Assembly (NCBI GenBank): GCA_902790595.1
Contig: CADASL010000005.1
Span: forward strand, 28,949 to 92,948
Length of the DNA stretch: 64,000 bases
DNA from: an uncultured Bacteroidales bacterium
Lineage (GTDB): Bacteria; Bacteroidota; Bacteroidia; Bacteroidales; SZUA-534
Direction: 5' to 3'
Part shown: one piece after another, positions 8,180 to 63,931 of the stretch
Position numbering within the stretch: the first letter of the stretch is position 1
Layout: each line of letters begins with the position of its first letter
Notes under the pieces: generated by a model
The model's input: the letters and a program-made list of their open reading frames with translations, nothing else
Databases searched by the model: none
Told to the model about the DNA's origin: nothing
Program-made: the position numbers and the translations under genes

Positions 8180-8232
8180 ATCTTATTGATTTTATTCTAT
8201 ATTTTTCTGATTTTATGACAAATACGCCACCA

Positions 8233-10080: not shown

Positions 10081-10186
10081 TGGGCAAAAAGATGCAATAT
10101 AGTCACCAAACTTATTGGTTCAAATATACAAAAACTCACTTAATAAGTTCTTTACAATAGATAAGTACAAGTCCTCGACACACAAA

Positions 10187-12915: not shown

Positions 12916-12927
12916 TATTACCGTCCC

Positions 12928-13923: not shown

Positions 13924-13926
13924 ACT

Positions 13927-14673: not shown

Positions 14674-14679
14674 AAAACT

Positions 14680-14907: not shown

Positions 14908-14920
14908 AGTAAAAAAGTAT

Positions 14921-19145: not shown

Positions 19146-19160
19146 AGATACCTCCCTATC

Positions 19161-20183: not shown

Positions 20184-20216
20184 TTTATTTATAACCTCTT
20201 TTCAAACAGGGAAAGA

Positions 20217-21233
20217 TTATCTCTTAAAATGTTTAATAACATATTTTAACTTATATTTTAATCCCATTTTCTCAAACATATCACTCAGTCCTCGTTTAAT
20301 TTTATACTTCAAACTAGCCTTGGAATATTTTTTATAAAACTCTTCAATTGAATATCGCTCATAATTATCCCAAAACTCATCATAATTTAGTGGAATAGGT
20401 GTCTGTTCAAACAAATGAGGATTGAATACTCTCCAACGCTCATCATTACATTCTTTTATTAATATTGACTCATTCAAAAATTTACTTACCATATGGTCAA
20501 ATGCGCGTTGACCTTTATCAGTATGTGGTATTACAAGAGAAACATCTTTAATTCCCTTAAATTCAGGAATTAACTCTTGTACCCCCCAAAAATCTCCTAT
20601 CGTTATATCGGCTGGTCTATTTAAATCTTTATTTCGGAAATTACAATTAAAACATCCCTTATATAAGGACACACAAGTTGAGAACAACCTCATCCATGCC
20701 TTCATTTCGTCAGGATCATATATTATTCTTCCATCTTCAAGTTCAACAAATGTCCTCCCCTTTTTGCGTGTAAAATTATTTCTAAAACAAACACGCTTTA
20801 TTTTTCCATACTTTTGTTCTATGAGTTTGACATAACCTCTCCAAAGTTCCGACTTAGGAGTACCATGACAGATTAAGTCAATTGTCAGCAACGAATCAGA
20901 ATCACATCCACTTTTTTTAATAATACTGTTGATTGCAGCTACCTGACACGGGGTTCCAACAAACAATACAGGAATTTTCTGTCTGATTAATTCTTGTATC
21001 TGTTCTAATGGTTCTGATATATCACTTCTAACATATTTACTCTCCTGAAAACATAAGATACCATCTCTATATTTCTTGCCAAAATGTTTTACCGAAAAGT
21101 CATCATTAAAGGCCGCACCAAATACAATAAATTCATCTCCAACTTCTTCATATAATGCTCGAGCAATTGCGGGGAATGCGCCACCCGACGAACTCGTGGG
21201 ATACTCAAAACTTTTGAAAGCATATACACTCAT
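20217..21233 (-). CDS. FrhB/FdhB-like (coenzyme F420 hydrogenase beta-subunit family) protein, no ferredoxin domain
   Basis: 338 aa with FVGTPCQVAAI and IGDFWG, the same motifs as the middle part of the 597-aa fusion at 14921-16714. Confidence 0.7.
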   Translation of the reverse strand: MSVYAFKSFEYPTSSSGGAFPAIARALYEEVGDEFIVFGAAFNDDFSVKHFGKKYRDGILCFQESKYVRSDISEPLEQIQELIRQKIPVLFVGTPCQVAAINSIIKKSGCDSDSLLTIDLICHGTPKSELWRGYVKLIEQKYGKIKRVCFRNNFTRKKGRTFVELEDGRIIYDPDEMKAWMRLFSTCVSLYKGCFNCNFRNKDLNRPADITIGDFWGVQELIPEFKGIKDVSLVIPHTDKGQRAFDHMVSKFLNESILIKECNDERWRVFNPHLFEQTPIPLNYDEFWDNYERYSIEEFYKKYSKASLKYKIKRGLSDMFEKMGLKYKLKYVIKHFKR

Positions 21234-21267
21234 ACAAAAATTCCTATTACATTCCCAAGTCTATTTT

Positions 21268-21705
21268 TTATTCTTCTCCGTTTTCGCTCATTTTGTGAAG
21301 AACCTCGGACAACAATGATGAAGAAACTCCATCCGTATGTGGAAGAAAAACAACATCAACCCCAACTTCTTTGAACTCATCAATCATCTTGTTGTACATA
21401 TCACTGCCTTTCCAATCTGAACCATGAAAAAGAGCATCAAAATGATATTTCTCCCAAGCTTCCATTTTATTCATACAAGTTTGAGGAACAGCCTGATCTA
21501 CACATTTAAGAGCAGAAACAATAGCCATTCTTTCTTCAAATGGAATGATGGGAGTTTTATTTTTATAACTCCTAACAACCTCATCTGTACTCACTCCGAC
21601 AATAAGGTATTCACATTGTTCTTTTGCTCTCTGAAGGACTTTCAAATGTCCGATATGAAACATATCAAAAACCCCTGTTGTATAGCCTATTTTGTATTTT
21701 TTCAT
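21268..21705 (-). CDS. Small cytidylyltransferase (glycerol-3-phosphate cytidylyltransferase/TagD-like)
   Basis: 145 aa with GYTTGVFDMFHIGHLKVLQRAKEQCEYLIVGVSTDE (HxGH) and a later HGSDW. There is an ATGA overlap with licD. Confidence 0.8.
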   Translation of the reverse strand: MKKYKIGYTTGVFDMFHIGHLKVLQRAKEQCEYLIVGVSTDEVVRSYKNKTPIIPFEERMAIVSALKCVDQAVPQTCMNKMEAWEKYHFDALFHGSDWKGSDMYNKMIDEFKEVGVDVVFLPHTDGVSSSLLSEVLHKMSENGEE

Positions 21706-22568
21706 TGTTTTAGATTATCCTTTACACAATAATAAGTCCCTTTGTAATCAAGATATGAATGTTCCGTATCTATCTTTGCAAGCTTATCAAGCTTAACACC
21801 TCGTTTTTCTATAGGTGGCAATTTCATATAGTCCCCATAAAACTTCTTCAAGAAATAATCATATCCAACCGGAACACTAAAAGTATCCGTTTCAAATTGC
21901 ATAGGTATTGTCTTCTCAAAAACATCTGCTGGATATATTCTACGGCATCTATTTAAATTTCCATAGAAATGTGCCTTATACTTTGTTTTTTCCCCTTCAT
22001 ATCTTGCCATATATCTAAGACAAAATCTTTTATATTTTTCTCTAAGCTTGCCTCGGACTATAAACAAAATAACTGCTCCGACAACTTTCATAAAAGCACC
22101 ATTATTATGAGGAATTTCACCAACTTCCAAGAGCATGTACATCACTGCATGAAGAGCCTGTATTTCTCTTAGAATCTTATTGTCAGCAACATTATATAGA
22201 GGATATATATCTATGTTAATTCCGTGATGCATATCTCTATGCGCTTGCGGTTTTACAATAAATGCTGTGCCATCTCTTCTTAATTTATAATATGTTGTTC
22301 CAGAATTAGGATCCGTATTAGCTGTCTGCAAGAAATAACCTTCCTTAAACTCTCCTTTTTTGAATAATTCTTCCAATCTTTTATAATCAGCAATAGGCAT
22401 TCCTGTATCTATATCGTCATCCCAAGGAATAAACCCACGATGCCTAATAGCGCCAAGTAATGTACCAAAAGCAAGATAATAAGTCAAACCGTTTTTATCA
22501 CAAACGCGTTTTAATTCCTTAAGAATCTCATATTGTTTTTTATGCAATGGTTGTATTTCTTCGTACAT
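21702..22568 (-). CDS. licD: LicD-family phosphotransferase
   Basis: 288 aa with YYLAFGTLLGAIRHRGFIPWDDDIDTGMP, the LicD nucleotidyltransferase-fold motif (DxD). Confidence 0.85.
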   Translation of the reverse strand: MYEEIQPLHKKQYEILKELKRVCDKNGLTYYLAFGTLLGAIRHRGFIPWDDDIDTGMPIADYKRLEELFKKGEFKEGYFLQTANTDPNSGTTYYKLRRDGTAFIVKPQAHRDMHHGINIDIYPLYNVADNKILREIQALHAVMYMLLEVGEIPHNNGAFMKVVGAVILFIVRGKLREKYKRFCLRYMARYEGEKTKYKAHFYGNLNRCRRIYPADVFEKTIPMQFETDTFSVPVGYDYFLKKFYGDYMKLPPIEKRGVKLDKLAKIDTEHSYLDYKGTYYCVKDNLKQ

Positions 22569-22630
22569 AAAACAAACAAATAATATATTTTACAAACAGA
22601 ATAGCACTATTTCTATTCTTAATCCACATA

Positions 22631-23461
22631 TCAATTTTTATTCTCGTTTATTACCCCATAAAAATCTAAAGCTTCTTTAACACTCACAATACGTATATTA
22701 TTCTCTAAACAATAATCAATTGCTTTTCTAAAATCGTTAAGGAAATCTTCTGACATCTCATTATATATTGAATGCATCATCCATATTTCCCAACCAGGAG
22801 TTTCATTTAATTGATTAATATAACCCTTTAAATCTTCAAGAGTATTTGTCATATGATTGCAAATAGGGAACCGTTTTAGCCCATATTTATGCATTTTTAT
22901 AAATTCATAGTCATTAACGACACTGCCAGAACTATTTATTCCGCATCTCATAACTTTTGAACAAATAGTAACCGTTGCCCCAGCTGATGCTCCCGGATAA
23001 ACCCAAATATCAGAAGTTTCCTCATATCCATTGCTTGACAAATCTTCAATGCTTTCTATCATTTCATTTCGTATATCATCCTTACTTCGTTTCTCACTCT
23101 CTGCCTTACTATATATATGATATTTACTATGGTTTAATACCTCAGCTCCTTGTTCGTGGCATTCCCTTATAGTTTCCCAATCCATGTAATTTCTAGTTCC
23201 GGCCCTACTCGTTTCTATTGCCATCGAAATGGAAATATTTTTTTCCTTTATGATTGGTAGTAACTTATCCACGAACGAAGTGTGACCATCGTCATCAATA
23301 AAAGTCAATAGTTTTGCGTTTTTTCTAATTTCTACAGTATCAACAAACTCTTGTTGATTGTTGATTGTTAATTGTTGATTGTTTGTAATGCACAAGACTA
23401 CAATAATAGTGACAAAAAGAGAGAAGAAAAGAAAAACAGTGAATTTCTTCATTTTAAACAT
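22631..23461 (-). CDS. Polysaccharide deacetylase (CE4-like) family protein with N-terminal membrane anchor
   Basis: 276 aa. It has a TM/signal segment (KKFTVFLFFSLFVTIIVVLC) and the motifs FIDDDGH and LNHSKYH, typical of the family. Confidence 0.65.
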   Translation of the reverse strand: MFKMKKFTVFLFFSLFVTIIVVLCITNNQQLTINNQQEFVDTVEIRKNAKLLTFIDDDGHTSFVDKLLPIIKEKNISISMAIETSRAGTRNYMDWETIRECHEQGAEVLNHSKYHIYSKAESEKRSKDDIRNEMIESIEDLSSNGYEETSDIWVYPGASAGATVTICSKVMRCGINSSGSVVNDYEFIKMHKYGLKRFPICNHMTNTLEDLKGYINQLNETPGWEIWMMHSIYNEMSEDFLNDFRKAIDYCLENNIRIVSVKEALDFYGVINENKN

Positions 23462-23471
23462 TTTATATACA

Positions 23472-24242
23472 TTATATATACTCCCCTGCCGTCAACCTAA
23501 ATGTGCTTCCCGTCATCATCGCCGAAGCGTCTGACATCAAATAGATTAATCCTTCCATATAGTCATTGCGTTCGCACATACGACCCATTGGTAGAATGTC
23601 GGCAGCGCGTTTGCGGAGTTCCGCCTCACTTTCTCCTTGGCTTATGCGAAGCGCGACCTCACCCTCGGTTGGTGTCCAACCGAGAGTAAGATAGTTGCAG
23701 CGTATCTGTTCTGTTGCGTATTGGTGCGATATGTGCTCCATTAGAATCCTCAACACACCTTTAGAGCAAGCGTATGCTGCACGGTCTTTTTGTCCGCCCC
23801 AAGCGTGAGCTGAGCCTGTGAGCACAATACTGCCACCGCCATTGAGTCTCATATATTTAATGGCCTGTTGGCAGCAAAAAAAACACGCTTTGAAGTTTAC
23901 ATCCATTACCCAATCGAAAGTCTCCTCGTCGCAAGTATCAAGAGGGCTAACAGGTGTTACTCCAGCGTAGTTAAAAAAGCCATCGATTTTGCCATATTTT
24001 TCATAAGCGGCATCAAATAAATGCTTGCAGTCGTCCACCTTCAGAAGGTCGCAGTGAACAAAAATACCATCAGAGCCGAATGTACGGATATTTCGGACTG
24101 CCTCTTTCCCCGCTTTCTCATCTCGGCCACCAATAACCACCTTCGCCCCTTCGCGTCCGGCGACTTCGGCGAAAGCCCTGCCCACACCTTTAGTGCCACC
24201 AGAAATAACAATGACTTTGTCTTTTAAACGTTCAAGTTCCAT
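23472..24242 (-). CDS. SDR-family oxidoreductase
   Basis: 256 aa with ISGGTKGVGRA and YACSKGVL (YxxxK). Confidence 0.85.
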   Translation of the reverse strand: MELERLKDKVIVISGGTKGVGRAFAEVAGREGAKVVIGGRDEKAGKEAVRNIRTFGSDGIFVHCDLLKVDDCKHLFDAAYEKYGKIDGFFNYAGVTPVSPLDTCDEETFDWVMDVNFKACFFCCQQAIKYMRLNGGGSIVLTGSAHAWGGQKDRAAYACSKGVLRILMEHISHQYATEQIRCNYLTLGWTPTEGEVALRISQGESEAELRKRAADILPMGRMCERNDYMEGLIYLMSDASAMMTGSTFRLTAGEYI

Positions 24243-53883: not shown

Positions 53884-54386
53884 TTGTGGCCACTGGTGCC
53901 GAATCGACGGGCAAAACCGAACTCTGCCGATTTTTAGCCCAAACGCTTGATATTCCGTGGGTTCCAGAACTGGCGCGCGGCTACGTTGAGCAGTTGGGCC
54001 GCCCCTACTCTTACGATGATGTGGTTGAGATTGCCCGTCTGCAGATTGCCGAATTTGAGCGCGCCACTACCGCTGGTCACTCTGCCGTTTTGTTCGATAC
54101 CGACCTGATTATCACCAAAGTATGGTTCGATGTGGTTTACGGCCGCTGCCCCGAGTGGATTCCCGAAGCCATCCGTTCGCATCCCGCCACGCTGCATCTG
54201 CTTTGCCTGCCCGATATTCCCTGGGTGCCCGACCCCGTGCGCGAAAACGGCGGCCCGATGCGCGATAAACTATCGGCCATCTATCGTAACGAGCTGGAAA
54301 CGTTTGGTTTGCCGTATGCCGAAGTGAACGGCAACGGCGATGAGCGACGGAATTGTGCCTTGATGGCGGTGAAAAAAGTGCTGTAA
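53856..54386 (+). CDS. NadR-type P-loop kinase (ribosylnicotinamide kinase-like ATPase)
   Basis: The internal ATG 53856 gives MAERTDTKIIVATGAESTGKTELCRFLA (Walker A). It overlaps the pnuC 3' end by 28 nt; pairing with pnuC is the classical context. Confidence 0.75.
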   Translation: MAERTDTKIIVATGAESTGKTELCRFLAQTLDIPWVPELARGYVEQLGRPYSYDDVVEIARLQIAEFERATTAGHSAVLFDTDLIITKVWFDVVYGRCPEWIPEAIRSHPATLHLLCLPDIPWVPDPVRENGGPMRDKLSAIYRNELETFGLPYAEVNGNGDERRNCALMAVKKVL

Positions 54387-54454
54387 AACAGCGTGTTAAA
54401 TCTGACCCGACAAGCAAACATCTGAATTGTAATCACATCTGTAAAAAAACGCGA

Positions 54455-55258
54455 ATGGCTGAAAACTGGGAAATATACGCCGACTGGAATCCGTGGCACG
54501 GCTGCACCAAGATTAGCTCGGGGTGCAAGCATTGCTACGTGTACCGACAAGACGAGATGTACGGCAGCGAAATATCGACCCAGGAATGTCGGAAAACCGC
54601 CAACTTCAACCTTCCCGTAAAGCGGAAGCGCGACAAGAGCTGGAAGATTGAAAGCGGCAAGATGGTTTTCACCTGCTTCACCTCCGATTTTCTGCTGAAA
54701 GACGCCGACGCGTGGCGCCCCGAGTGCTGGAAGATGATGAAAGAGCGCAGCGACCTCTGGTTCTATTTCTTCACCAAACGCATCGACCGCTTTACGGAGT
54801 GCATCCCCGACGACTGGGGCGACGGCTACGACAATGTGCTTGTGGGCTGCACCGTCGAGGACCAGGAAATGGCCGATTACCGACTGCCGATTTTTCTGTC
54901 GGCCCCCATCAAGCATAAGAGCATTATGGTGGCGCCAATGCTCACCAATGTTGACCTTACGCCCTACCTCACCCCGCAGATTGAGGAAGTGGCCGTCAGC
55001 GGCGAGTCGGGTGTTGACGCGCGACCCTGCAACTACGACTGGATTCTCAACGTGCGCGAACAGTGCATATCGAAAGGCATCGCTTTCCGCTTTCATCAGA
55101 CGGGGGCTCACTTTATCAAGGACGGCAAGATGTACCGCATCCATCGGCGCTTTCAGCTAAGCCAGGCTCACAAGGCGAACATCGATTACAAAATCGGCAA
55201 ATATATGGTGCCCGAAACCATCAGGTTTGAATGGAAGGATGATGACTATCACGAGTGA
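54455..55258 (+). CDS. DUF5131 (phage Gp37/Gp68-like) family protein
   Basis: The internal ATG 54455 gives MAENWEIYADWNPWHGCTKISSGCKHCYVY, the W-x-P-x-x-GC-x(4)-GC-x-x-CY N-terminal motif of this family. Confidence 0.7.
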   Translation: MAENWEIYADWNPWHGCTKISSGCKHCYVYRQDEMYGSEISTQECRKTANFNLPVKRKRDKSWKIESGKMVFTCFTSDFLLKDADAWRPECWKMMKERSDLWFYFFTKRIDRFTECIPDDWGDGYDNVLVGCTVEDQEMADYRLPIFLSAPIKHKSIMVAPMLTNVDLTPYLTPQIEEVAVSGESGVDARPCNYDWILNVREQCISKGIAFRFHQTGAHFIKDGKMYRIHRRFQLSQAHKANIDYKIGKYMVPETIRFEWKDDDYHE

Positions 55259-55328
55259 TAGGATGCGAATTGCACGACATTCGCTGCAAATTTTGAAGTG
55301 AATGTTGGTAAGATTCGCTTCATTTGCT

Positions 55329-55336
55329 TATTTTTG
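55329..55336 (+). promoter_or_regulatory. Possible Bacteroides -7 promoter box (TATTTTTG) for the fic gene
   Basis: It matches TAnnTTTG and lies 19 nt upstream of the ATG at 55355. No well-spaced -33 TTTG is present. Confidence 0.3.
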
Positions 55337-55354
55337 CAAGAAAATAAGTGAGTT

Positions 55355-56464
55355 ATGAAACCGCATTACATCTGGCAATATCCCGACTGGCCTAATTTTC
55401 GTTGGGAAACCGACAAAATAATGAACCTTCTTTCCGAAGTGCGTCTTCAGGAAGGGCGCATTACAGGGATGATGGATGGCTTAGGATTCGAAGTTCAGAC
55501 AAAAACATCACTTGACGTGATGACTGAAGATGTTATCCGTTCCAATGAGATTGAAGGTGTTTTGCTGAATGCCGATAGAGTACGGTCTTCAGTTGCCAGG
55601 CATCTTGGCATTTCAACGGAAGGACTACCTGAGCCGGACCATTACACTGATGGTGTTGTGCAGGTAATGATTGATGCTGTCAGCAACTATTCTGATGAAC
55701 TAACCGAACAGCGCCTTTTTAATTGGCACGCAGCCTTGTTCCCAACTGGGCGAAGCGGCATAACCCCCATAACAGTGGCGGGATGGCGAGTTGGCGAAGA
55801 GCCAATGCAAGTGGTTTCTGGCACGCTCGGCAAAGAGAAGGTTCATTACGAAGCCCCGGCATCAGCCGATGTGCCAAAAGAGATGGCGCGTTTTCTGGAT
55901 TGGATTAACAATGAAAAGACTTCCGACCCTATTCTAAAAGCGGCTGTTGCGCATCTGTGGTTTGTCGCCATCCATCCATTCGACGACGGAAATGGCCGAC
56001 TAACCAGGACAATCACCGATATGCTGCTCGCCCGTGCCGATGGTATGCCACATCGCTACTACAGTATGTCAGCCACAATTCTCAAGAGTAAGAACAAATA
56101 CTATGAAGCGTTGGAAAACACCACAGTGGGCAATGTTGATATTACATTGTGGCTTGAATGGTTTCTTCAAACCTTAAAAGGTGCAATGGAACACAGCGAA
56201 GTTGTTGTCAGCCGCGTGGTTAAAAAATCGTTGTTCTGGCAAGAGCACCGCAATGTGGCTATGAACAAGCGCCAAGTTAAGGTTGTGAACAAATTGTGGG
56301 ACGGATTCGAAGGCAAACTCACAACCGACAAATGGGCTAAACTTTGCAAAACCTCGCAGGCTACCGCTCTCCGTGATATCAACGATTTGATTGACAAAGG
56401 CATTTTGGTAAAAGGTGCGGAAGGCAGCAAGAATACCAGTTATGTTCTTTTGGAAGATAAGTAA
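55355..56464 (+). CDS. Fic-family protein (class II, intramolecular inhibitory helix) with C-terminal wHTH-like domain
   Basis: 369 aa. It has the Fic motif IHPFDDGNGRLTRT (HxFx[DE]GNGRxxR) and an upstream SNEIEG matching the inhibitory (S/T)xxxE(G/N) motif. Confidence 0.9.
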   Translation: MKPHYIWQYPDWPNFRWETDKIMNLLSEVRLQEGRITGMMDGLGFEVQTKTSLDVMTEDVIRSNEIEGVLLNADRVRSSVARHLGISTEGLPEPDHYTDGVVQVMIDAVSNYSDELTEQRLFNWHAALFPTGRSGITPITVAGWRVGEEPMQVVSGTLGKEKVHYEAPASADVPKEMARFLDWINNEKTSDPILKAAVAHLWFVAIHPFDDGNGRLTRTITDMLLARADGMPHRYYSMSATILKSKNKYYEALENTTVGNVDITLWLEWFLQTLKGAMEHSEVVVSRVVKKSLFWQEHRNVAMNKRQVKVVNKLWDGFEGKLTTDKWAKLCKTSQATALRDINDLIDKGILVKGAEGSKNTSYVLLEDK

Positions 56465-56480
56465 GGGAGGAGAACAAAAC

Positions 56481-56515
56481 GGGCGGAACCGATGATTTTT
56501 TAGCCGATTCCGCCC
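56481..56515 (+). terminator. Hairpin downstream of fic (possible terminator)
   Basis: gggcggaa...ttccgccc forms an 8-bp GC-rich stem (56481-56488 / 56508-56515) with a 19-nt loop, followed by the moderately T-rich tgattgtgtttgcttatttt. Confidence 0.4.
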
Positions 56516-56677
56516 TGATTGTGTTTGCTTATTTTCTAATCTAACGGGTCTGGCTCATCGTTTTCTATACTTTCTACGAGCGAGGCATCGAAGGCCAGGA
56601 ACACTTCAAGGAAAGCAGTCTCGCGGTAGAAATAGTTGGGGTCGTCGGTTAGTTTGTATTGCGATAATCCTCTATTT

Positions 56678-58537
56678 TCAAGTGTAAAGCATTTGTTGAA
56701 TACACTCTCTCAAATACTTAAACGGAAATGGTACTACTGTCAGTTGTCCGTTTCGCACGAAAGTCACACTCATTAGCGGTAATAATTGTTCAAAGAACAG
56801 TTCTGATTGCTTATAAGGAAGAATCTTTCTTATGTTAGCGGCGCATTGTATCGTTGAATTTAAGCCGTAGCCAGACACTCCCGAATAGTAATATTGACAA
56901 CCATCTTTTTGGTAGCATTTAATATCTATACAAGAACCGAACAATTGTTCTTTGTATTGAGTGCTGCGGACACCTTTCACAGAACGCTTGTTTTCAGCTA
57001 CCGCCACTTCCTGCTTGTATCGTTTTAATTGAGACTCAACTTCGAACATATCGGGAAGTGTTCTTAAATCCGTCTCCTGGATAATGTTTATTGACTCTCC
57101 GTGTTGAATTGTACCACAAACAATGCCATCTTCATCGTTGTCAAATATTTCCATACAATCATTGAATTTGTTCATATTAAACAAGTCCAATTCCAACTCT
57201 TCGAAATCAAATGTTCCATCTGGGTGAATGGTCATAAAAAAGAAACGGGGTGTCTTATCGTCCATAATCCGTAAACCGAAAGTCCAATCATCCAAGAAAT
57301 TGTACTCTTTCCAATCAACCAAAGATATGGTTCTCCCCTGAATGTCGTTCTTAATCAAAAGCTCTTCGGCGACGGTGTTTATCGCACTTGTGACATTAGT
57401 TTTGAAATTCTCATAGGTTATGTGCTGAACAACGCACCCCTCAAATTTGTCGTTGTGCGGGTCGTTGCCGCCATCGTATGTGTCTTTGTCGTGTATTATC
57501 CTCAAATTGAGGCAACCTTTTTTGGGGTGCTTTATTACTGTAGCCTGCACACTAAATCTTTCTTTTAATGCGGATTGCAAGTCGTCAACAAAATCACTAG
57601 AATAGGTATCGCCAATTGCATCAACTATTCTTATTGGTTGCTTCTTTATCAATTCACCAATCAACGCTTTTGTCTTTTCAGACAATTTAGGCTCCACAAC
57701 CAACTCTCTTAAATTGGGTATACTCAGAAATTGAACTTCAACAAATTTGCCGCACTTCTCATTAAACTTCTTTAGCACATTAGTTATCACTCCCAATTTG
57801 CATTGTTTGTAGTATTCAATTCCCCGAATATCCAAGAATGTTATTTCGTTTTTGTCTTTTTTTGTTTGACGGGCAATAAAACCAACATCTTTGCTGTCTT
57901 TCGGTTTGCGGCGTAATGTTTGGTTTCGCGATAATATGTACTGTGGGTATTCTTCAAACTTCTTTGCTTTAAATTCTATTTCTTTGCGTAATGTGGCTGA
58001 TGAGAACGTTTGAATCGACCATTTTAAAACAAGGTCTTTTGTGATTTTCAACTCCAAACAAGGAATTTGCGATACTGGCGCATCCTCACCTTTGAATCGT
58101 TTTATCCAAGAAGCATCGTAGCAATAGAAATGGCCTGTAATGTTGTTGAATTTCAACTCATCGGTTTCGTATGTGCCCAAACTATTGAGCAACAATTGGG
58201 CAATTACGTGTTCTGGAACTTGTTTAAACCCCGTGTCGCGCTCATCATTGGAAATGATATTGTTTCCTCCGTCAGACTTGACGAGTTCTCCATTCAATTG
58301 CCTGAAATTGTGTTCATTGTGCTTTAACAACACATAAAACGTTTTGCCGCCTTCAAAAACAACCGAAAGAACATTGCTGTTCTCAAATGGCACATCAACC
58401 ATTTTAGCCCCATTGGGGAAATATGGATTTTTCTTACTTGGATTCTTGACTTGAGAATCGATTCTAAATATGTCGTAGGTTTTCAGAAGTTTCTCTCTGT
58501 CAACCTTTATTGCTACCTGATTTATTATACTTTCCAT
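56678..58537 (-). CDS. 619-aa protein of unknown family; candidate Argonaute-like (MID/PIWI-type) component of the operon
   Basis: Uninterrupted ORF whose ATG at 58537 overlaps the upstream gene by 38 nt. The only motifs I can relate to a family are GIEYYKQCKLGVITNVL (about aa 239-255, compare Argonaute MID Y-x3-K...G-x-x-T-Q-x-V) and the C-terminal NGQLTVVPFPFKYLRECI (compare the PIWI C-terminal h-P-x-P-h-x-Y-A). The gene call is solid; the family call is inference. Confidence 0.6.
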   Translation of the reverse strand: MESIINQVAIKVDREKLLKTYDIFRIDSQVKNPSKKNPYFPNGAKMVDVPFENSNVLSVVFEGGKTFYVLLKHNEHNFRQLNGELVKSDGGNNIISNDERDTGFKQVPEHVIAQLLLNSLGTYETDELKFNNITGHFYCYDASWIKRFKGEDAPVSQIPCLELKITKDLVLKWSIQTFSSATLRKEIEFKAKKFEEYPQYILSRNQTLRRKPKDSKDVGFIARQTKKDKNEITFLDIRGIEYYKQCKLGVITNVLKKFNEKCGKFVEVQFLSIPNLRELVVEPKLSEKTKALIGELIKKQPIRIVDAIGDTYSSDFVDDLQSALKERFSVQATVIKHPKKGCLNLRIIHDKDTYDGGNDPHNDKFEGCVVQHITYENFKTNVTSAINTVAEELLIKNDIQGRTISLVDWKEYNFLDDWTFGLRIMDDKTPRFFFMTIHPDGTFDFEELELDLFNMNKFNDCMEIFDNDEDGIVCGTIQHGESINIIQETDLRTLPDMFEVESQLKRYKQEVAVAENKRSVKGVRSTQYKEQLFGSCIDIKCYQKDGCQYYYSGVSGYGLNSTIQCAANIRKILPYKQSELFFEQLLPLMSVTFVRNGQLTVVPFPFKYLRECIQQMLYT

Positions 58538-61500
58538 CTATGGCATTTTTAATGTATAAAACGGCTTGTTCGTTGGGAACCAACTCGCCATTAACTAAAG
58601 AATACAAACACGGAATTTCAACTATCATTTGTGTGACCGAAGGTTGATAGTTTGATTGGCTCACAATTTGGGTATTCGCAACAATAATGGTCTCGGCTCC
58701 GCATTCGTCTTTCTTATTAGTTATCTTCTCAATGTATTCATCTGCATTGAATTGGGTGCTTTCTTTCCAATGTTTGAAATCGATAAAAATAGGTTTACCT
58801 TTCACTTGGAAATCAAAGAACTCATAATATTCGGGCACCAAATCTTCCAATTCTACATTTATAATTTGCGAGAAGAAAACTCTCCCGACAAATTCTCCTA
58901 ATGCTCCTTTGTAAATATTGTTGAACAACGGTGGCGACATTATGAACTTACGTTTCACCCAATCTGTGGCATATCTATTTTGCTCGAAATAAGATTTCAA
59001 TCCTGGCAGTTTCAATAGATTGTGTAAATTCACGCTTTCTGCGGATTCTGTTGCGAAACCTGATTGAGCCGAGAACGACACCTCGGTTTTGGAAAAGTCG
59101 TTTTCGGTTTTGTAATAGACATTGTTGGCCACTGTTGGCAACTCAATGTAGAAGAACCTCCACGAAGTGTTTTCCCACTCTTCTTTTGTTAATGTCGGGT
59201 GTTGCAAGACAAAATCACGCAGACGCTGCCATCGTTCAATATTATCTTTATTCCAATATTTGAAATTCAGCATTCTCAGTATCTGTCGGTTCGCCTTATA
59301 CGAAACATCTTCCGCTTTCTTCACAGCGTCAATTTCTTCTGGAATTAGCATTTTGCGATTATCTTTCAACCTATTTGCAAGTGCCCGAAACTCCCAATTG
59401 AAATCCTTTGATTTATCATCAATTATCGGATAGTATAAGACATCTGCAATCTCGTCGTGAGCAAAAATGTAAATATGCTGGCTTTTCATATTGGTTCTGC
59501 ATATTCGACCAACCGCCTGAATCAGACATCTGGTTGCGGCAATCTGCGCACTATTGGTGTCTAATAAAGAGTTGAAAAACTTGTTCTTTCCTCTCAACTT
59601 ATCGAATGCGGCTCGTATATTGTTGTCTTTATCTGCTGGTGAAATTTCATAATTGTCGCACAGGTATTCACATTGATAAATGTAACGCGCCACATCTTCA
59701 ATCGGCACGTCTGGCAGAATCATATTCACCATTACATTCGTAGGCTTATCGAGATAAATGGCATCGAAATCTTTCTGTTCGCGTTCTTTAAAATCGTTTG
59801 TATGAACAAGTTTTCCTTTTAATAATTCGGGAATGTCATATTGCAAATTTTGCCCTGCGCCAATGGTTTGGTATGACGATACTACAAAACGACGATGGCC
59901 TTTTGCCAGGGCATCAAGAATGTCGTCCTTTTTGTTGTCGAAATCGGCACTATCCAAAATAACCGCCACTTTTTCGTCATAAGGGACTTTCGCTTCTTCG
60001 GAAATCGCCTTGAATATTTTTTGTAAGAAAGACCATTTCAAGGTATTGCTATCTTCTTTAGGTAACGTAGTAAGCATACACAACAACGAATATATTTCGG
60101 GGTGGTTGATAAACTGCTTATAAACCCAAGCGATTCTTATATATCGACACTTAAGATAGACTTCGGTCCTTTTCCCTTTGCTATCCAATCTTGGTGGCAG
60201 CATACTTTCAAGTTCGTTGTAAATCAACTCTGCCACTTCTTCGTTTGAAAAGATTTTCCTCCATTGATTACTATTGATATAATCACCATCGGTTATGTGT
60301 TCTGTCACACCAACTTGAATCATATCTTTCTTGTAACCCGAGACTGAATTTTTGAATTGTTGATGAAGCCGTTCTCTATCGTTGTCTGTGAGTTGGCGGT
60401 ATCCACTATGAAGCCGCCATTTCAAATAATTCAAATCGTAGTTGGCAGTCACGCTTTCCAACGATGCTGTAGCAGATAGTCCTACAACTTTTGCCGACAA
60501 ACACATTTTCTTCATTATCTTTTCTGGTGTTTCCTCAAAAGAATAACGGAAAATGTCGGTTTTCAAATCGTGTCGGTCCTCATCAAGAAATTCATAATAG
60601 TTCCAACCTTTGTTGCAAAATCTGGTATCGCCACTTTCATAATCATCATCAATGCTGTTGGCTTCGTTATTGTTCCCCTTCCAAGTCATTTGCACTTCAC
60701 GAACCAATTTCGTTACAATGCTTGGCTCAGCAATAAATGTTGATAACACGGTTTGAATTGCTGAGTCAATAGAATAGTCCCTTTGAGTATCAGAATGACT
60801 TATCTCTTCTTGCCGAAGTTGCTGATAATTGATTGAAAGAACACTAACACCTTTCAAGAAATAATTAATGAAACGCTTAACATCGGAAAGAACTTCTTGA
60901 ATTTTCTTGGTTTCGCTGTCCGAATTGAGCAATATGGCATTCCAATTCCCTTTGCCGTCAAATTTGGTTACAATGTCTTTTTTGTCTGAAACCATTGATG
61001 AATATCCAAAGTCATTGAACAAGAAGTATCGTTCTTCGTGGTCGAAATCCTGCGACTTATGACAGAAATCGAGTTTGTGCTTCTCGTTAGTTTCCTGTGC
61101 CAATTTCTTTATGTCATTTATAATTTTTTCCAAGGGGAACTTCTTGTTATACTCATTCTTTTTCCTGTTTTCCGATGGTGTGATTAATCTTTTGGGGATT
61201 TCTCTTGTCAAAAGCCCCGAATGGATTCTCTTAAAAAGGTCAATATAGTTTATCCCATTCTCGATATTCCTGTCAATGATATTATTAAGCATTGTCTCTT
61301 TTGTGGCATCAAACTCATCGACAAAAACAAAGGAATTCTTGAATGACGGATGATTGTAAAAGAAATATGGATGCTCGACAATAGTTGAATGTTCGAGCAG
61401 AAACTTATCAATGGTAAGGAAATAAACTGAATAGTCTTGAGTGAACACTGACGGGTATAACTCACCAATCCAATGCCATTGCGCTTGAGTTTTGACCGCT

Positions 61501-61988
61501 TGTAGTTTTTTCTTTCTATCCTTAAATTCCTCGTGAAGTTTATATGTAAGCATTTTGCGGAAATTTCTTTCCGCTTCTTGAAATTCATTGAATTGGGATT
61601 CTTTATGTCTTTCTTTTAATAATTCGACTATTTCATATTTTTCTTCCAGTTTCTTAAACTCATCGCTTTTCCATACCTTGTCATTTTTCTTGACATCATC
61701 TCTTATTGAATCGAAATTCTCTTTTACAAAATCAATGTTTGGTTTAATTCTAAATACCTTTTTCCGTTGTTCTTCCGATAATATATCCAACAAGTCATTA
61801 TACGGGTCATCAAGATTCTTTTTGAGTGTGGTCACAAAGAAAATTTTCTTATCTGGATATTTTTCCATTAGTTCTTTGATATAATGGATAACCTCGTAAG
61901 TTTTGCCTGCACCTGTCGGCATATCTATAAGAAACAACCCATTGGTTGATTGTTCGTCTTCGCAAAAACTCTTTATTACTTCTTTCAT
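58500..61988 (-). CDS. 1162-aa SF2 (DEAD/DEAH, type-III-restriction-Res-like) helicase with C-terminal PD-(D/E)xK-like nuclease motif
   Basis: The motifs are I (DMPTGAGKTY, aa ~22-31), II (FVFVDEFDAT), III (VVGLSATASL) and VI (IQAVGRICRTN). The C-terminal YKGALGEFVGRVFF...FFDFQVKGKPIFIDFKHW (nt ~58770-58915) fits E...D...(D/E)xK. Confidence 0.8.
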   Translation of the reverse strand: MKEVIKSFCEDEQSTNGLFLIDMPTGAGKTYEVIHYIKELMEKYPDKKIFFVTTLKKNLDDPYNDLLDILSEEQRKKVFRIKPNIDFVKENFDSIRDDVKKNDKVWKSDEFKKLEEKYEIVELLKERHKESQFNEFQEAERNFRKMLTYKLHEEFKDRKKKLQAVKTQAQWHWIGELYPSVFTQDYSVYFLTIDKFLLEHSTIVEHPYFFYNHPSFKNSFVFVDEFDATKETMLNNIIDRNIENGINYIDLFKRIHSGLLTREIPKRLITPSENRKKNEYNKKFPLEKIINDIKKLAQETNEKHKLDFCHKSQDFDHEERYFLFNDFGYSSMVSDKKDIVTKFDGKGNWNAILLNSDSETKKIQEVLSDVKRFINYFLKGVSVLSINYQQLRQEEISHSDTQRDYSIDSAIQTVLSTFIAEPSIVTKLVREVQMTWKGNNNEANSIDDDYESGDTRFCNKGWNYYEFLDEDRHDLKTDIFRYSFEETPEKIMKKMCLSAKVVGLSATASLESVTANYDLNYLKWRLHSGYRQLTDNDRERLHQQFKNSVSGYKKDMIQVGVTEHITDGDYINSNQWRKIFSNEEVAELIYNELESMLPPRLDSKGKRTEVYLKCRYIRIAWVYKQFINHPEIYSLLCMLTTLPKEDSNTLKWSFLQKIFKAISEEAKVPYDEKVAVILDSADFDNKKDDILDALAKGHRRFVVSSYQTIGAGQNLQYDIPELLKGKLVHTNDFKEREQKDFDAIYLDKPTNVMVNMILPDVPIEDVARYIYQCEYLCDNYEISPADKDNNIRAAFDKLRGKNKFFNSLLDTNSAQIAATRCLIQAVGRICRTNMKSQHIYIFAHDEIADVLYYPIIDDKSKDFNWEFRALANRLKDNRKMLIPEEIDAVKKAEDVSYKANRQILRMLNFKYWNKDNIERWQRLRDFVLQHPTLTKEEWENTSWRFFYIELPTVANNVYYKTENDFSKTEVSFSAQSGFATESAESVNLHNLLKLPGLKSYFEQNRYATDWVKRKFIMSPPLFNNIYKGALGEFVGRVFFSQIINVELEDLVPEYYEFFDFQVKGKPIFIDFKHWKESTQFNADEYIEKITNKKDECGAETIIVANTQIVSQSNYQPSVTQMIVEIPCLYSLVNGELVPNEQAVLYIKNAIDGKYNKSGSNKG

Positions 61989-62006
61989 ATGATAAAACGT
62001 GTCTAA

Positions 62007-62879
62007 CTAATACTTCTGTTTCCCTGGTATAACTCCCCTAACCCCGCCTTTCGGGTTCTCAACATCGCCTTTGTAGCGCGGAATCAGGTGAATGTGAACG
62101 TGAAAAACGCTTTGCCCTGCGGCCTCGCCAACGTTTATGCCCACGTTGAAGCCATCGGGGTGGAAACGCTCCGCCAACAGTTTTTTGCAATGGTTCACCA
62201 AAAGCCACAAGGCACGCTGTTCACGTGTTGTTAAATCGAAATAACTGGCAACGTGGCGTTTGGGGATAATCAACGTATGGCCTTTGCTCACTGGGTAGCC
62301 GTCGAAAAAGGCAACTGCGGTGGCGGTCTCGCTCAACAATTCCACTTTCGGATTCAGGTTGCAGAAAGGGCAACCTTGGACAATCTCGTATTTCTTTTTG
62401 TAATCGGTTTTGTTGAAGTGCCTGTACTCATATATTTCGCAATTCTCGTTTGCAAAAACGCTTTTGTACGGTAGAACCACATTGCATTGATATGTGGGTT
62501 GCTTGTGTACAAAATGCGTGCGGAACCCTTCGCTTTTCAAATCGCGGCGGACTGCGAAATAGGCGGTTCCTGTTGGTTTGAGCAGTTCTGAAACCGACAT
62601 CAGCACTTCGGCTTGTTCTTCGGGTTCAAGAACGTTGAGCACATAATTGCAAATTATTGTGTCAAAGCGTTTTGTCGGATATTCGGGGCGGTAATAGTTG
62701 TCGTAACCGACAATGTTGTAGCCTTCCTTCTGAAGTTGGTCAGTGTCAAAACCAAATCCACAGCCAAAATCAAGAATCTCGCCTTTCAAAAGGTTGTTTT
62801 GTTTCAGCCATCGTGTTGGAAACGAATATGTTGTGCGCTCTTTGGCCGTCAAATGTGGGTTGTTCTTTATCTTTTTCAT
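62007..62879 (-). CDS. Fusion protein: class-I SAM-dependent methyltransferase (N) + histidine-triad (HIT) nucleotide hydrolase/transferase (C)
   Basis: I start at ATG 62879, which forms an ATGA overlap with the upstream stop; the ORF track starts 3 codons earlier. The N-half has ILDFGCGFGFDT (motif I) and FDTIICNYVLNVLEPEE. The C-half has CPFC...FFDGYPVSKGHTLIIPKRH...AGQSVFHVHIHLIPR (HxHxHxx). Confidence 0.82.
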   Translation of the reverse strand: MKKIKNNPHLTAKERTTYSFPTRWLKQNNLLKGEILDFGCGFGFDTDQLQKEGYNIVGYDNYYRPEYPTKRFDTIICNYVLNVLEPEEQAEVLMSVSELLKPTGTAYFAVRRDLKSEGFRTHFVHKQPTYQCNVVLPYKSVFANENCEIYEYRHFNKTDYKKKYEIVQGCPFCNLNPKVELLSETATAVAFFDGYPVSKGHTLIIPKRHVASYFDLTTREQRALWLLVNHCKKLLAERFHPDGFNVGINVGEAAGQSVFHVHIHLIPRYKGDVENPKGGVRGVIPGKQKY

Positions 62880-63931
62880 CGCTCCCAATATTTAAAGCCC
62901 ATATTTTCAGCAATCTGCGCCAATGGCGAGAATGTCTTTTGAAAAACATTGCAAAAATCATCGTCTGACATACGAACCAATTCACCAACTGAATCATATA
63001 CAGTAAGATAATCTTCGAGAATCTTGTTGTTAGGATTCTTCGGATAGATTGTTTTCAATGCCTTATGGTGCAACTCCGCATACGGATTCAGGTAAATATC
63101 CAACGGCGGCAGATTGTTGCTTTTCGACGAATTAATGCTTGAATCGGCTGGCAACAAATTCCATAACAGATTGTGCGACACAAAACTCCACGGAATAAAA
63201 TGGTCCAAATCGTAGTCTTTGGCAATCAACGGTTTATTGGTGTATATGCAACGAATTGAGCCAACGGTTTCGATATATGCGTCCCAAAACTTATGCTGCT
63301 TTGTGAGTGAATCGCGAAGAATCGGTTTTATAAGTTTCGAAGGCACATCTGGCACATTCGGGTTGCGTTTTTGCAGAAATTCGGTCAGGTTCCAAAAAGC
63401 AAAATCGCGCAGAATTGTGTAATGCTCAGTCAGATATTCAACCCAATTGTCGTTGATTACAATTTCATCGCCGTAAATGGCATAAAGACAATCATTTTCA
63501 AAACGTTGCGATTTGGCCACCACATCTTCATCGTAGGTGTATTTTATCCAAGGCGAAAGAAAACGATATGGTACATTCAGAGTGAAAACCCTTAAAAACT
63601 TCTTTGTACCGTTCAGATTATCAAGCAAATATTTCTTTATCTTATCCTTATCAGATTCGATTGAAATCTGAAACGCATTTTGAATTTCAAGCGATTTGTC
63701 GAACAGCGAATCGGACTTGCCAAACGAGATTTTAAAATAATGAATCGGATACCAAGATTCCGCCACCATTCCTGCAATGATTTCCCAAAACGAGATTCGC
63801 GTTTTGCGCTCTTTCACAACAATATCCAACAATGCCACAAACCAATAGAATTTGTACGTTGCAGTGGTATTGCTGAATATCCCTGCAAGGGTGGGGATTG
63901 GAAGTTTGTAGCTGTTTGGTAAGGTCATCAT
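62876..63931 (-). CDS. HNH-endonuclease-domain protein with uncharacterised ~230-aa N-terminal region
   Basis: 351 aa. The HNH core is YDLDHFIPWSFVSHNLLWNLLPADSSINSSKSN. I cannot place the N-terminus (ATYKFYWFVALLDIVVKERK...) in a family. It is the first gene of the operon, and only 69 nt of upstream sequence lie inside the window. Confidence 0.75.
   Translation of the reverse strand: MMTLPNSYKLPIPTLAGIFSNTTATYKFYWFVALLDIVVKERKTRISFWEIIAGMVAESWYPIHYFKISFGKSDSLFDKSLEIQNAFQISIESDKDKIKKYLLDNLNGTKKFLRVFTLNVPYRFLSPWIKYTYDEDVVAKSQRFENDCLYAIYGDEIVINDNWVEYLTEHYTILRDFAFWNLTEFLQKRNPNVPDVPSKLIKPILRDSLTKQHKFWDAYIETVGSIRCIYTNKPLIAKDYDLDHFIPWSFVSHNLLWNLLPADSSINSSKSNNLPPLDIYLNPYAELHHKALKTIYPKNPNNKILEDYLTVYDSVGELVRMSDDDFCNVFQKTFSPLAQIAENMGFKYWER

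Follow-up and report, generated by a model that had tools for sequence, protein, structure and literature searches.

We found that the last two genes of a tightly packed operon from an uncultured Bacteroidales bacterium encode a diverged Bacteroidales version of DdmDE, placed inside a hotspot for defence cassettes. The operon comprises four genes, g1 to g4 in the order of transcription, and lies at the end of the 64,000-nucleotide stretch of DNA that was analysed (the window). A preliminary description had proposed that the four genes form a single undescribed defence system. This was not supported: PADLOC assigned g3 and g4 to the already named DdmDE, and the four genes rarely co-occur. Since this known pair is swappable behind a separate and conserved pair (g1–g2), we conclude that the locus does not encode a new four-gene machine. 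It probably combines two modules that are independent of each other and happen to share a transcript, in which DdmDE would be exchanged as a cassette and the g1–g2 pair would act as a restriction-modification (R-M)-like or addiction module.

Organization and transcription of the locus

All four genes lie on the minus strand. g1 (62876–63931; 351 aa) encodes an HNH_4 nuclease, g2 (62007–62879; 290 aa from its ATG, the open reading frame list extending it to a TTG at 62888) a methyltransferase (MTase) fused to a HIT domain, g3 (58500–61988; 1162 aa) a DdmD homologue and g4 (56678–58537; 619 aa) a DdmE homologue. g1 and g2 overlap by 4 nt in an ATGA junction (...CGATGAAAAAG), an 18-nt gap separates g2 from g3, and g3 and g4 overlap by 38 nt. 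Independent metagenome contigs show identical gene calls and overlaps, in agreement with the reading frames and junctions of the preliminary description, all of which are correct. Its domain assignments (HNH; MTase plus HIT; helicase with GAGKT and a D-F-K motif) likewise hold by Pfam and sequence. The AT-richness that it pointed out is real but modest: the G+C content of g1, g2, g3 and g4 is 0.396, 0.464, 0.370 and 0.381, respectively, against 0.47–0.57 in the adjacent 44–56 kb, and, owing to another low-GC block at 8–24 kb, 21% of the same-size windows elsewhere in the 64 kb are no less AT-rich.

More genes had been thought possible beyond position 64000, but on the source contig g1 is preceded, at a distance of 772 nt, by dnaK. 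The g1 ATG has a Bacteroidetes-type promoter motif (TAACTTTG) 83 nt before it, and no such motif was found inside g2 or g3. Downstream, an intrinsic-terminator-like hairpin with a 12-bp stem followed by GUUUUGUU (56473..56515, minus strand) is located about 165–205 nt past the ddmE stop codon, between the operon and a convergent Fic gene. Its RNA fold (−23.5 kcal/mol, z = −4.9) was matched by 0 of 200 shuffles. The consensus terminator scan passes over this hairpin, whose loop exceeds the length allowed by the scan; on the minus strand of g1–g4 it returned only a weak 5-bp site inside g3. Given the 18-nt gap, a promoter motif before g1 but none inside g2 or g3, and strong termination predicted only downstream of g4, co-transcription of the four genes is likely, as the preliminary description had supposed, and the g1 promoter would drive ddmDE as well.

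Homology of g3 and g4 to DdmD and DdmE

g3 matched the PADLOC DdmD model (2.7e-39) and, in the PDB, the DdmD structure 9ix4 (1.8e-60) and Vibrio cholerae (Vc) DdmD (1.2e-35), the alignment to 9ix4 covering residues 12–61 and 148–1100. The helicase is of the SF2, XPD/DinG-like type, with a Pfam ResIII match at the N-terminus, the Walker A motif GAGKT at 26–30 (K29, equivalent to Vc K55) and the Walker B motif VDEFD at 223–227 (D224-E225). Residues E1032, E1056, D1059, D1070 and K1072 of the C-terminal PD-(D/E)xK nuclease, the last two belonging to the D-F-K motif at 1070–1072, occupy in a residue-level alignment the columns of VcDdmD E1059, E1082, D1085, D1100 and K1102, all of which are kept. 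By these sequence comparisons, g3 is a true homologue of DdmD.

The product of g4 had been described as an Argonaute-like orphan; it is an Argonaute, but not an orphan. It matched the PADLOC DdmE model (4.4e-8), and its family profile matched Lactobacillus casei DdmE over the full length (1.8e-57) and V. cholerae DdmE (2.5e-30). When its AF2 model (pLDDT 85.4, pTM 0.83) was searched with Foldseek, an Argonaute fold was found and the six best matches were all DdmE structures (E 8e-36 to 1.6e-22): the five full complexes had TMq values of 0.73–0.77, and 8u0j had one of 0.62. Other Argonautes came after them, at a TM of about 0.45. Residues Q371, E392 and K396 align to the ligands of the guide 5′ end and Mg2+ in the Vc protein (Q376, E401 and K405), each of them being either invariant in the family or conserved in 90% or more of its members. 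K607 and E611 fall within a C-terminal motif, PFPFKYLRE, that is shared with LcDdmE (the corresponding Vc Mg2+ ligands are K674 and E678). One substitution was seen, His361 standing at the column of Vc Tyr363, which stacks on the guide 5′ base. Profile and model together thus identify g4 as a true DdmE homologue, a predicted long-C-type prokaryotic Argonaute (pAgo). The fold of this type comprises N, L1, L2 and MID, a PIWI domain with an insertion, and C-APAZ in place of PAZ. The resemblance of g3 and g4 to DdmDE suggested earlier turns out to be true homology by PADLOC, PDB sequence and profile searches, AF2 with Foldseek, and key residues. As a member of this family, the protein is expected to lack the DEDX slicer tetrad and to have a catalytically inactive PIWI domain.

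The pair has the gene order of the V. cholerae and L. casei systems, ddmD then ddmE, and comparable sizes (1162 and 619 aa, against 1190–1192 and 687–715 aa), with homology in sequence or profile over the full length, a matching predicted DdmE fold, and Walker A/B, all five nuclease residues and the MID-pocket Mg2+/5′-phosphate ligands retained. It differs from them by strong divergence, DdmE being only about 15–16% identical to the solved structures in the Foldseek alignments and matching the PADLOC model no better than 4e-8, by a DdmE that is about 70–95 residues shorter, by the overlap of the two genes, and by its position behind another operon with no promoter of its own. Its host is an uncultured rumen or gut Bacteroidales bacterium.

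With homology and catalytic residues both in place, the mechanism that we infer from the V. cholerae and L. casei systems is as follows. DdmE would be a catalytically silent Argonaute that loads short 5′-phosphorylated DNA guides; guided DdmE would bind complementary DNA of a plasmid or another mobile element and recruit DdmD; and the DdmD helicase would thread the displaced strand into its own PD-(D/E)xK nuclease. Studies of DdmDE have so far concerned Vibrio and Lactobacillus; the system now includes a deeply diverged clade from uncultured Bacteroidales of the rumen and gut, in which it bears on plasmid carriage and genetic tractability.

Separate distributions of ddmDE and the g1–g2 pair

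We inspected the neighbourhoods of both pairs. There are 423 relatives of g2 among GTDB species representatives, and in the best 80 of these loci g1 was immediately upstream of g2 in 79 genomes, while DdmDE followed the pair in just one (L035), in the form of a very distant DdmD/partner pair; the other 79 had no DdmDE. Conversely, among the best 80 of 408 DdmE loci, in which metagenome loci are partly redundant, none of the 40 informative ones had the g1–g2 pair, and wherever a related locus had room for it, ddmD directly preceded ddmE. The closest relatives, at 91% nucleotide identity, are stand-alone ddmDE pairs between housekeeping genes (L083/L091) with no g1–g2, and the homology to them spans 61989–56706 only, that is, the two ORFs alone. 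Another DdmDE, at 59% identity, adjoins WYL/Cas12a, again with no g1–g2.

These distributions bear on whether g1–g4 could be one integrated system in which the HNH protein and the MTase::HIT fusion are accessory subunits of a DdmDE variant; they might, for example, mark self DNA, generate or edit 5′-phosphorylated DNA guides, or provide a second nuclease. The tight spacing and what is probably a single promoter and terminator fit such a system. So do several recurrences. The whole block is found at 75% nucleotide identity, in a different chromosomal context, in L087–89, where it keeps the g2–ddmD junction and the remnant of a further gene (c4, see below); the distant DdmDE of L035 follows g1–g2; and distant relatives of g1 (28% identity; the same HNH family), together with a small MTase lacking HIT, lie directly upstream of diverged DdmDE in L114 and L121 and downstream of it in L149. 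The HIT-less MTase also follows DdmE in 11 further metagenome loci, with a helicase as its partner there. The L087–89 recurrence and these distant modules could point to a loose functional link, and not just to clustering in islands. Against integration, the recurrences differ in gene order and MTase type, and the g2 MTase and the HIT-less MTase share the SAM motif only. The pair has other cargo, or none, in 79 of the best 80 of 423 loci, the nearest DdmDE relatives do without it, and a sister strain carries AbiU in the DdmDE slot. Moreover, expression of V. cholerae DdmDE in E. coli led to plasmid elimination, the constructs described being those of DdmD and DdmE only (10.1101/2024.05.10.593530). 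We therefore consider an integrated system unlikely.

Probable exchange of cassettes behind g2

The junctions support two independent modules. The sister strain (L004) is 94.6–96.4% identical to the window on both sides of the cargo, but the match between the two ends at 62008, within the stop codon of g2 (62007–62009), and begins again at 56657; exactly in between, the strain carries AbiU. The segment 56658..62007 (minus strand), with ddmD and ddmE, is thus absent from that strain and replaced. The variable region started exactly at the g2 stop codon in all four close comparisons, and neither a recombinase nor repeat borders were seen. In another locus (L131), ddmD comes after 60 codons left over from the 3′ end of g2.

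The preliminary description mentioned a start-less ORF fragment beside the left edge of the block; it is real and lies at about 56536–56655. Translation and blastx indicate that it is the remnant of a gene, c4 (56536..56655, minus strand), comprising the last 39 or so codons and the stop codon of a 192-aa family, with 51–96% identity to the C-termini of its members. c4 or its remnant is found downstream of g2 in 16 loci, and the remnant is also kept in L003, L004, L005 and L087. Four relatives (L017, L027, L031 and L038) have an intact operon in the order HNH, MTase::HIT, SspD-like, PbeA, PbeC-like and c4, the PbeA assignment having E = 0. Judged by its sequence, the remnant is the 3′ end of the gene that closed a Pbe-type operon, which DdmDE displaced. 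We propose that g1 and g2 originated as the first two genes of such a Pbe/Ssp-type, phosphorothioation-related operon, and that a promoter-less ddmDE ORF pair replaced the SspD-like, PbeA, PbeC and c4 genes, leaving the end of c4.

The operon headed by g1–g2 in these relatives is comparable to the PbeABCD, or CxC-ABC-ATPase, systems and the SspBCD phosphorothioation systems, as reinterpreted in PMC10853773. An SspD/DndC-like PAPS-reductase protein, PbeA (an HKD nuclease-helicase) and a PbeC-like ABC ATPase follow the pair, and the small last gene, c4, takes the place of PbeD/DndE, although the c4 protein did not match any PbeD model. SspB and SspC lie upstream of g1–g2 in several loci, and the closest family to the g2 MTase, TIGR04096, is dnd-associated. 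PbeA, PbeC and a DndE-like partner are absent from the window, which holds only the c4 stub. The passages of PMC10853773 found by term search do not mention the HNH and MTase::HIT pair, and 'HIT' has 0 occurrences.

If the pair were a non-functional leftover of this degraded system, only DdmDE would matter at the locus. The rest of the Pbe-type operon is indeed deleted down to a 39-codon stub, and no Ssp or Pbe gene was found on the 21 kb of the source contig inspected. However, the g1 and g2 ORFs are intact with all motif residues, their dN/dS is far below 1 (next section), and most of the best 80 of 423 loci keep the pair with no Pbe/Ssp neighbour. That g1–g2 is a leftover is thus most improbable.

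Properties of the g1–g2 pair

Residues 1–225 of g1 form an N-terminal domain with no recognised fold, followed by the HNH_4 domain and a short helical tail; the AF2 model is poor (pLDDT 55). HNH_4 is the domain type common to Septu PtuB and Cas9. The Pfam HNH_4 match (4e-10) is to a Cas9-type HNH, D243-H244...N258...N267, and the PDB matches of the family profile were Cas9 HNH domains only. H244, N258 and N267 are invariant across 45 homologues. The N-terminal domain belongs to a set of 1365 representative clusters and is elsewhere fused to sigma-70 r2+r4, MTaX1+Myb and HTH_40 proteins; it probably recognises DNA.

The N-terminal part of g2 (about residues 1–160) is a small class-I SAM MTase with motif I LDFGCGFG, and its HIT domain, of a nucleotide hydrolase/transferase type, has CxxC at 170–173 and H260-x-H262-x-H264. 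Matches were found to Pfam HIT (7e-24) and Methyltransf_23 (3e-10), to HIT proteins in the PDB (6e-18) and to the N-terminus of the NCBIfam TIGR04096 putative MTase (1e-15). Apart from the latter, the MTase part matched generic class-I SAM-binding families and, weakly, the SAM region of MADS Mad2; no DNA-MTase family was matched in PADLOC, Pfam or NCBIfam, and no DPPY/PCQ catalytic motif or target-recognition domain was recognisable on inspection of the sequence. The motif residues are invariant across 67 homologues. With dN/dS of 0.07–0.11 for g1 and 0.014–0.04 for g2 (synonymous sites saturated) and invariant catalytic motifs in both, the pair is under strong purifying selection and appears to be functional and not debris.

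We found no specific match for the pair in PADLOC or in the literature searched. Like type II and IV HNH R-M enzymes, it consists of a nuclease and a SAM MTase that are strictly paired, translationally coupled and located in defence islands, and the nuclease has an extra N-terminal domain, elsewhere joined to DNA-binding or methylase-associated domains. In contrast to these modules, the MTase is small and HIT-fused and has none of the hallmarks sought above, and both genes evolve far more slowly than typical R-M genes. The most likely role of g1–g2, as we infer it, is that of an autonomous R-M-like or addiction module in which a nuclease effector would be paired with a modifying or protecting enzyme.

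A probable defence hotspot beside g1–g2

The flanks of g1–g2 are unrelated between loci, the upstream side of g1 being as variable and as rich in defence genes as the downstream side. They include Wadjet, Hachiman, SspB/C/D, PbeA/C, SIR2-pAgo, PDC-S02, PDC-M31, Mokosh-like, AbiU, PARIS-like and HEC-01 systems. Cargo after the pair was co-directional and within 150 nt in 42 of 67 loci. Because g1–g2 is conserved while its surroundings turn over, the site right after the g2 stop codon would be a cassette-exchange hotspot; because the genomic position of g1–g2 varies as well, the pair is itself mobile.

Core-gene-flanked defence hotspots are known in Pseudomonas and E. coli (PMC10250203, PMC10121019), and 'Hma-embedded candidates' are listed in PADLOC. 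As in those, conserved flanks enclose interchangeable cargo that differs even between close strains. Here, by contrast, the conserved flank is a mobile, conflict-type gene pair and not a housekeeping gene or an integrase, the breakpoints fall at the boundaries of reading frames, and the cargo comes promoter-less.

Such features might also be expected if g1–g2 were no defence effector but a platform, a promoter-proximal pair that lends expression and a homology arm to promoter-less cassettes and has a housekeeping-like role in nucleotide or RNA metabolism. The breakpoints at the g2 stop codon, the closely spaced co-directional cargo, the movement of DdmDE as ORFs only, the g2 remnant in L131 and the evolution of g2, as slow as that of a housekeeping gene, agree with this. 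Yet a Cas9-type HNH with invariant catalytic residues, strictly coupled to an MTase whose gene overlaps its own by 4 nt, is what conflict systems typically consist of, the side upstream of g1 is equally variable and defence-rich, no recombinase or repeat borders were seen, and the pair itself moves. We regard a mere platform as very unlikely.

Tentatively, we suggest that g1–g2 represents an autonomous type of conflict module, so far undescribed, in Bacteroidales. Its nuclease, equipped with a new domain that reads DNA or a mark, would be held in check by a non-canonical enzyme modifying nucleotides or nucleic acids. This enzyme might couple methylation to HIT-type nucleotidyl chemistry, perhaps on DNA or RNA 5′ ends or on the backbone. 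Being so conserved and possibly addictive, the module could nucleate a hotspot for promoter-less cassettes (DdmDE, Wadjet, Hachiman, AbiU, pAgo and several unannotated ones) exchanged by homologous recombination. With its unusual candidate chemistry, g1–g2 is a more novel lead than DdmDE.

The locus shows that membership of one system cannot be inferred for adjacent defence genes from tight translational coupling and a common promoter. The HNH and MTase::HIT genes constitute a conserved two-gene marker whose flanks are full of interchangeable defence systems, and because PADLOC and Pfam leave several of the adjoining cargo genes unmatched, it can serve as a beacon in the search for new systems.

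Organization and transcription of the block

Four minus-strand ORFs make up the block: g1 (62876–63931, 351 aa), encoding an HNH_4 nuclease; g2 (62007–62879, 290 aa counted from the ATG), encoding a class-I methyltransferase (MTase) fused to a HIT domain; g3 (58500–61988, 1162 aa); and g4 (56678–58537, 619 aa). The ORFs and junctions given in the preliminary description hold: the same four products are called on independent metagenome contigs, an ATGA overlap joins g1 to g2, 18 nt lie between g2 and g3, and the g3–g4 overlap is 38 nt. It was also suggested that the operon might extend past position 64000; this is ruled out, since on the 239-kb metagenome scaffold from which the window was taken dnaK lies 772 nt upstream of g1. 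Just beyond the window edge, a Bacteroidetes-type −7 motif (TAACTTTG) precedes the g1 ATG by 83 nt; no such motif was found ahead of g4 or within the 3′ portion of g2, and a hairpin with a U-tract (56473–56515; 12-bp stem, −23.5 kcal/mol, z = −4.9) lies 3′ of g4. A single transcript spanning g1–g4 is therefore likely. A sigma-70 promoter scan, whose model is uninformative for Bacteroidetes, returned fewer sites than in shuffled sequences, and neither Rfam nor tRNA scans gave a match in the window.

g3 and g4 encode a diverged DdmDE

PADLOC HMMs identified g3 as DdmD (2.7e-39) and g4 as DdmE (4.4e-8). Against PDB sequences, g3 matched DdmD 9ix4 (1.8e-60) and Vibrio cholerae (Vc) DdmD (1.2e-35), and g4 as a single sequence matched DdmE 9iw3 (4e-15) and VcDdmE (4e-7); 9iw3 and 9ixm are from L. 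casei (Lc) according to Foldseek labels. A profile of 49 g4 relatives matched LcDdmE over its full length (1.8e-57) and VcDdmE (2.5e-30), with no other PDB match. When the AF2 model of g4 (pLDDT 85.4, pTM 0.83) was searched with Foldseek, six DdmE structures ranked first (E 8e-36 to 1.6e-22), with TMq values of 0.73–0.77 except in the case of 8u0j (0.62), and non-DdmE Argonautes ranked below at a TM of about 0.45. A PHROGs search gave no match for g1, g3 or g4.

Mutagenesis of VcDdmD has shown K55, E1059, E1082, D1085, D1100 and K1102 to be essential (10.1101/2024.05.10.593530); each is matched in the alignment by a g3 residue (K29, E1032, E1056, D1059, D1070 and K1072). In VcDdmE, Y363, Q376, E401, K405, K674 and E678 hold the guide 5′ end and Mg2+ (10.1101/2024.05.10.593530). 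Q371, E392 and K396 of g4 align residue for residue with Q376, E401 and K405, and K607 and E611 of g4 fall within a conserved C-terminal PFPFKYLRE motif, whereas the Y363 position is occupied by His361 in the alignment. Wherever a related locus extends far enough, ddmD lies directly upstream of ddmE. By sequence profiles, predicted structure and conserved residues, g3–g4 is a diverged member of DdmDE, which by homology should carry out DNA-guided plasmid/MGE elimination, executed by the helicase-nuclease. The likeness to DdmDE noted earlier thus reflects true homology; the larger machine built upon it is not supported, as described below.

g1 and g2 form a separate conserved pair

There are 423 relatives of g2 among GTDB species representatives. 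We surveyed the loci of the best 80 (66–99% identity), whose hosts are uncultured Bacteroidales, Paludibacteraceae, Prevotellaceae, Muribaculaceae, Bacteroides caecigallinarum, Seramator and Geofilum. Within these best 80 of 423, g1 is immediately upstream of g2 in 79, the exception being a contig that begins inside g2, and DdmD and DdmE are missing from 79; the sole DdmD, at locus L035, is very distant (23% identity, PADLOC 1e-22) and has a 659-aa partner. Clustering of flanking ORFs at the 80 loci found g1 and g2 alone to be common, with both flanks hypervariable. The adjoining gene is co-directional and within 150 nt at 42 of 67 loci downstream of the pair and at 41 of 67 upstream. Strong purifying selection acts on the pair, with dN/dS values of 0.07–0.11 for g1 and 0.014–0.04 for g2; synonymous sites are saturated in most comparisons, and the HNH residues of g1 (D-H...N...N), MTase motif I of g2 and its HIT HxHxH are invariant.

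Genes 85–96% identical to the Bacteroidales g1 and g2 also occur in contigs binned as Methanobrevibacter and Alphaproteobacteria (L040, P0167), host labels that are probably MAG binning errors. Viral contigs lacked the pair; the homologues that they did yield were stand-alone HIT or MTase proteins from very large phage contigs. Stand-alone HIT proteins on viral contigs of 108–360 kb, a jumbo-phage size (L171–L176), are 45–64% identical to the HIT half of g2, match phrog_19494 (1e-32) and could serve phage nucleotide metabolism or counter-defence.

Juxtaposition of the two pairs

The preliminary description proposed that the four genes constitute one undescribed defence system. Against this proposal stand the PADLOC assignment of g3 and g4 to DdmDE, the g2 survey and the reciprocal survey of the best 80 of 408 metagenome loci with g4 relatives: in 40 of these, a full-length ddmD is preceded by 2.1 kb of sequence or more, and none of the 40 carries the g1–g2 pair beside DdmDE. 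The closest DdmDE relatives among the loci inspected (DdmE 95–96% identical in amino acids, 91% in nucleotides) stand alone between housekeeping genes, and their homology to the window covers 61989–56706, that is, the two ddmDE ORFs alone. At L090 (1–4456), where DdmE is 59% identical, DdmDE is directly preceded by Cas12a (Cpf1) and a WYL-domain regulator and followed by GmrSD-like genes, a defence island without the HNH/MTase pair.

An integrated system, or a looser functional link, could nonetheless account for several recurrences. The whole block, including the gene remnant that follows it, is kept in L087–89 at 75% nucleotide identity in a different chromosomal context, and at L035 the distant DdmDE follows g1–g2. 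Elsewhere, a small MTase lacking HIT and a g1-family HNH protein (28% identity) precede DdmD and DdmE (L114, L121), or DdmE is followed by HNH and then MTase (L149). At L128 (9467–12543), the gene of the same small MTase (202 aa, class I), overlapped by that of an 834-aa SF2-helicase protein, lies about 180 nt downstream of ddmE; with L126, L130, L136, L137, L139, L140, L142, L143, L152 and L153, 11 loci share this arrangement, which probably represents a few lineages sampled repeatedly and looks like another MTase-plus-effector module beside a gut-metagenome DdmDE clade. Finally, a 60-codon 3′ fragment of g2 (L131:3926–4105, 83% identity) immediately precedes a diverged ddmD; this apparent scar suggests that the cassette moved by recombination within g2. 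However, gene orders and partners differ among the recurrences, and the small MTases have only the SAM motif in common with that of g2, so that repeated juxtaposition in defence islands fits the recurrences better than a fixed system. We conclude that ddmDE here is a new, diverged member of its system, riding as cargo at a defence-cassette hotspot whose head is the highly conserved HNH and MTase::HIT pair.

Probable replacement of an older operon by ddmDE

Locus L004 is 94.6–96.4% identical to the window in nucleotides on both sides (dnaK, g1 and g2; Fic and DUF5131). Its homology ends at 62008, inside the g2 stop codon (62007–62009), and restarts at 56657; in between it carries AbiU (PADLOC 8e-188) where the window has ddmDE. 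L003, L005 and L006 likewise part from the window at most 3 nt from the g2 stop. The start-less ORF fragment noted earlier at the left edge of the block is real: 56536–56655 is a gene remnant, coding for the C-terminal ~39 residues of the 192-aa c4 family. Intact operons in L017, L027, L031 and L038 read g1, g2, an SspD-like PAPS-reductase, PbeA (PADLOC E=0), a PbeC-like ABC ATPase and c4. Several loci have SspB and SspC upstream, and in others the PbeC-like gene is truncated and the operon interior swapped for other systems. PMC10853773 reinterprets PbeABCD as CxC-ABC-ATPase systems that end in a DndE-like gene; c4, which matches no PbeD model, may by its position be the DndE-like partner. 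Among curated families, the g2 MTase best matches the N-terminal part of TIGR04096, a putative methyltransferase associated with dnd. Given this match and the SspD/PbeA/PbeC operons, g1–g2 probably originated at the head of a system related to phosphorothioation. The pair remains intact in many islands after replacement of the other genes, and ddmDE would have taken the place of older operon genes, leaving the c4 stub.

Two genes on the plus strand (54353–56464), one of the phage Gp37/Gp68-like DUF5131 type and the other DUF4172+Fic, are convergent to the operon, with AAA_28 and PnuC-like NMN transporter genes further on; the Fic-bearing segment is without counterpart in sister loci L003 and L005.

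The block had also been described as AT-rich and as looking horizontally acquired. Its G+C (0.40, 0.46, 0.37 and 0.38 for g1 to g4) is indeed lower than that of the neighbouring 44–56 kb (about 0.47–0.57). Low G+C is not confined to the defence block: 8000–24000, a long run of minus-strand ORFs, has a G+C of 0.33–0.39. Since 21% of equal-size windows also match the AT-richness of the g3–g4 segment, composition alone is weak evidence for recent transfer, and we rejected strongly anomalous composition as its sign, the cassette being unexceptional within the window.

Possible functions of g1 and g2

The AF2 model of g1, built on a shallow alignment of 76–95% identical sequences, had a pLDDT of 55 and gave no Foldseek match in the PDB below E=0.1; the g1-family profile matched PDB sequences in the HNH domain alone, to Cas9. 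Its N-terminal domain (residues 1–225) occurs in 1365 representative clusters, mostly of the same ~350–380-aa architecture. It is also fused to sigma-70 r2+r4 proteins (660–1249 aa, with the domain at the C-terminal side), MTaX1+Myb and HTH_40 (P0341, P0359, P0395, P0439, P0428 and P0418), which suggests a role in DNA or mark recognition. The g2 MTase has no recognisable DNA-MTase motifs, and a PADLOC match to MADS Mad2 was judged generic, as it covers the SAM-binding region only. The nearest relatives of the HIT domain are Ap4A phosphorylase/HinT-type enzymes. PADLOC 2.0 has no specific model for g1–g2, and literature searches for an HNH/HIT/methyltransferase defence system or such a Bacteroidales hotspot found nothing specific. 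The most economical reading of these sequence features would be a restriction-modification-like or addiction module, whose conservation could make the pair's borders a recombination hotspot.

Defence cargo beside g1–g2 in other genomes

Of greater interest as leads are the HNH and MTase::HIT pair and the unannotated cargo that accompanies it in other genomes. Known defence systems adjoin the pair: in five loci g2 is directly followed by type I Wadjet jetABC(D), and a Wadjet-like variant occurs in further ones. Other neighbours include Hachiman hamAB, SspB/SspC/SspD, PbeA/PbeC-like, SIR2-pAgo, PDC-S02, PDC-M31, Mokosh-like, Lamassu-like, PARIS-like AriA, HEC-01 and AbiU. Three kinds of cargo directly downstream of g1–g2 that lack a PADLOC match are candidate unannotated defence systems: a 600-aa protein (L029:10897–12699), a pair of 868 and ~1590 aa (L047:10969–13575 with L056:8996–13759), and a Wadjet-like four-gene set (L054:2199–8500) whose SMC protein matches Pfam DUF3584 alone.
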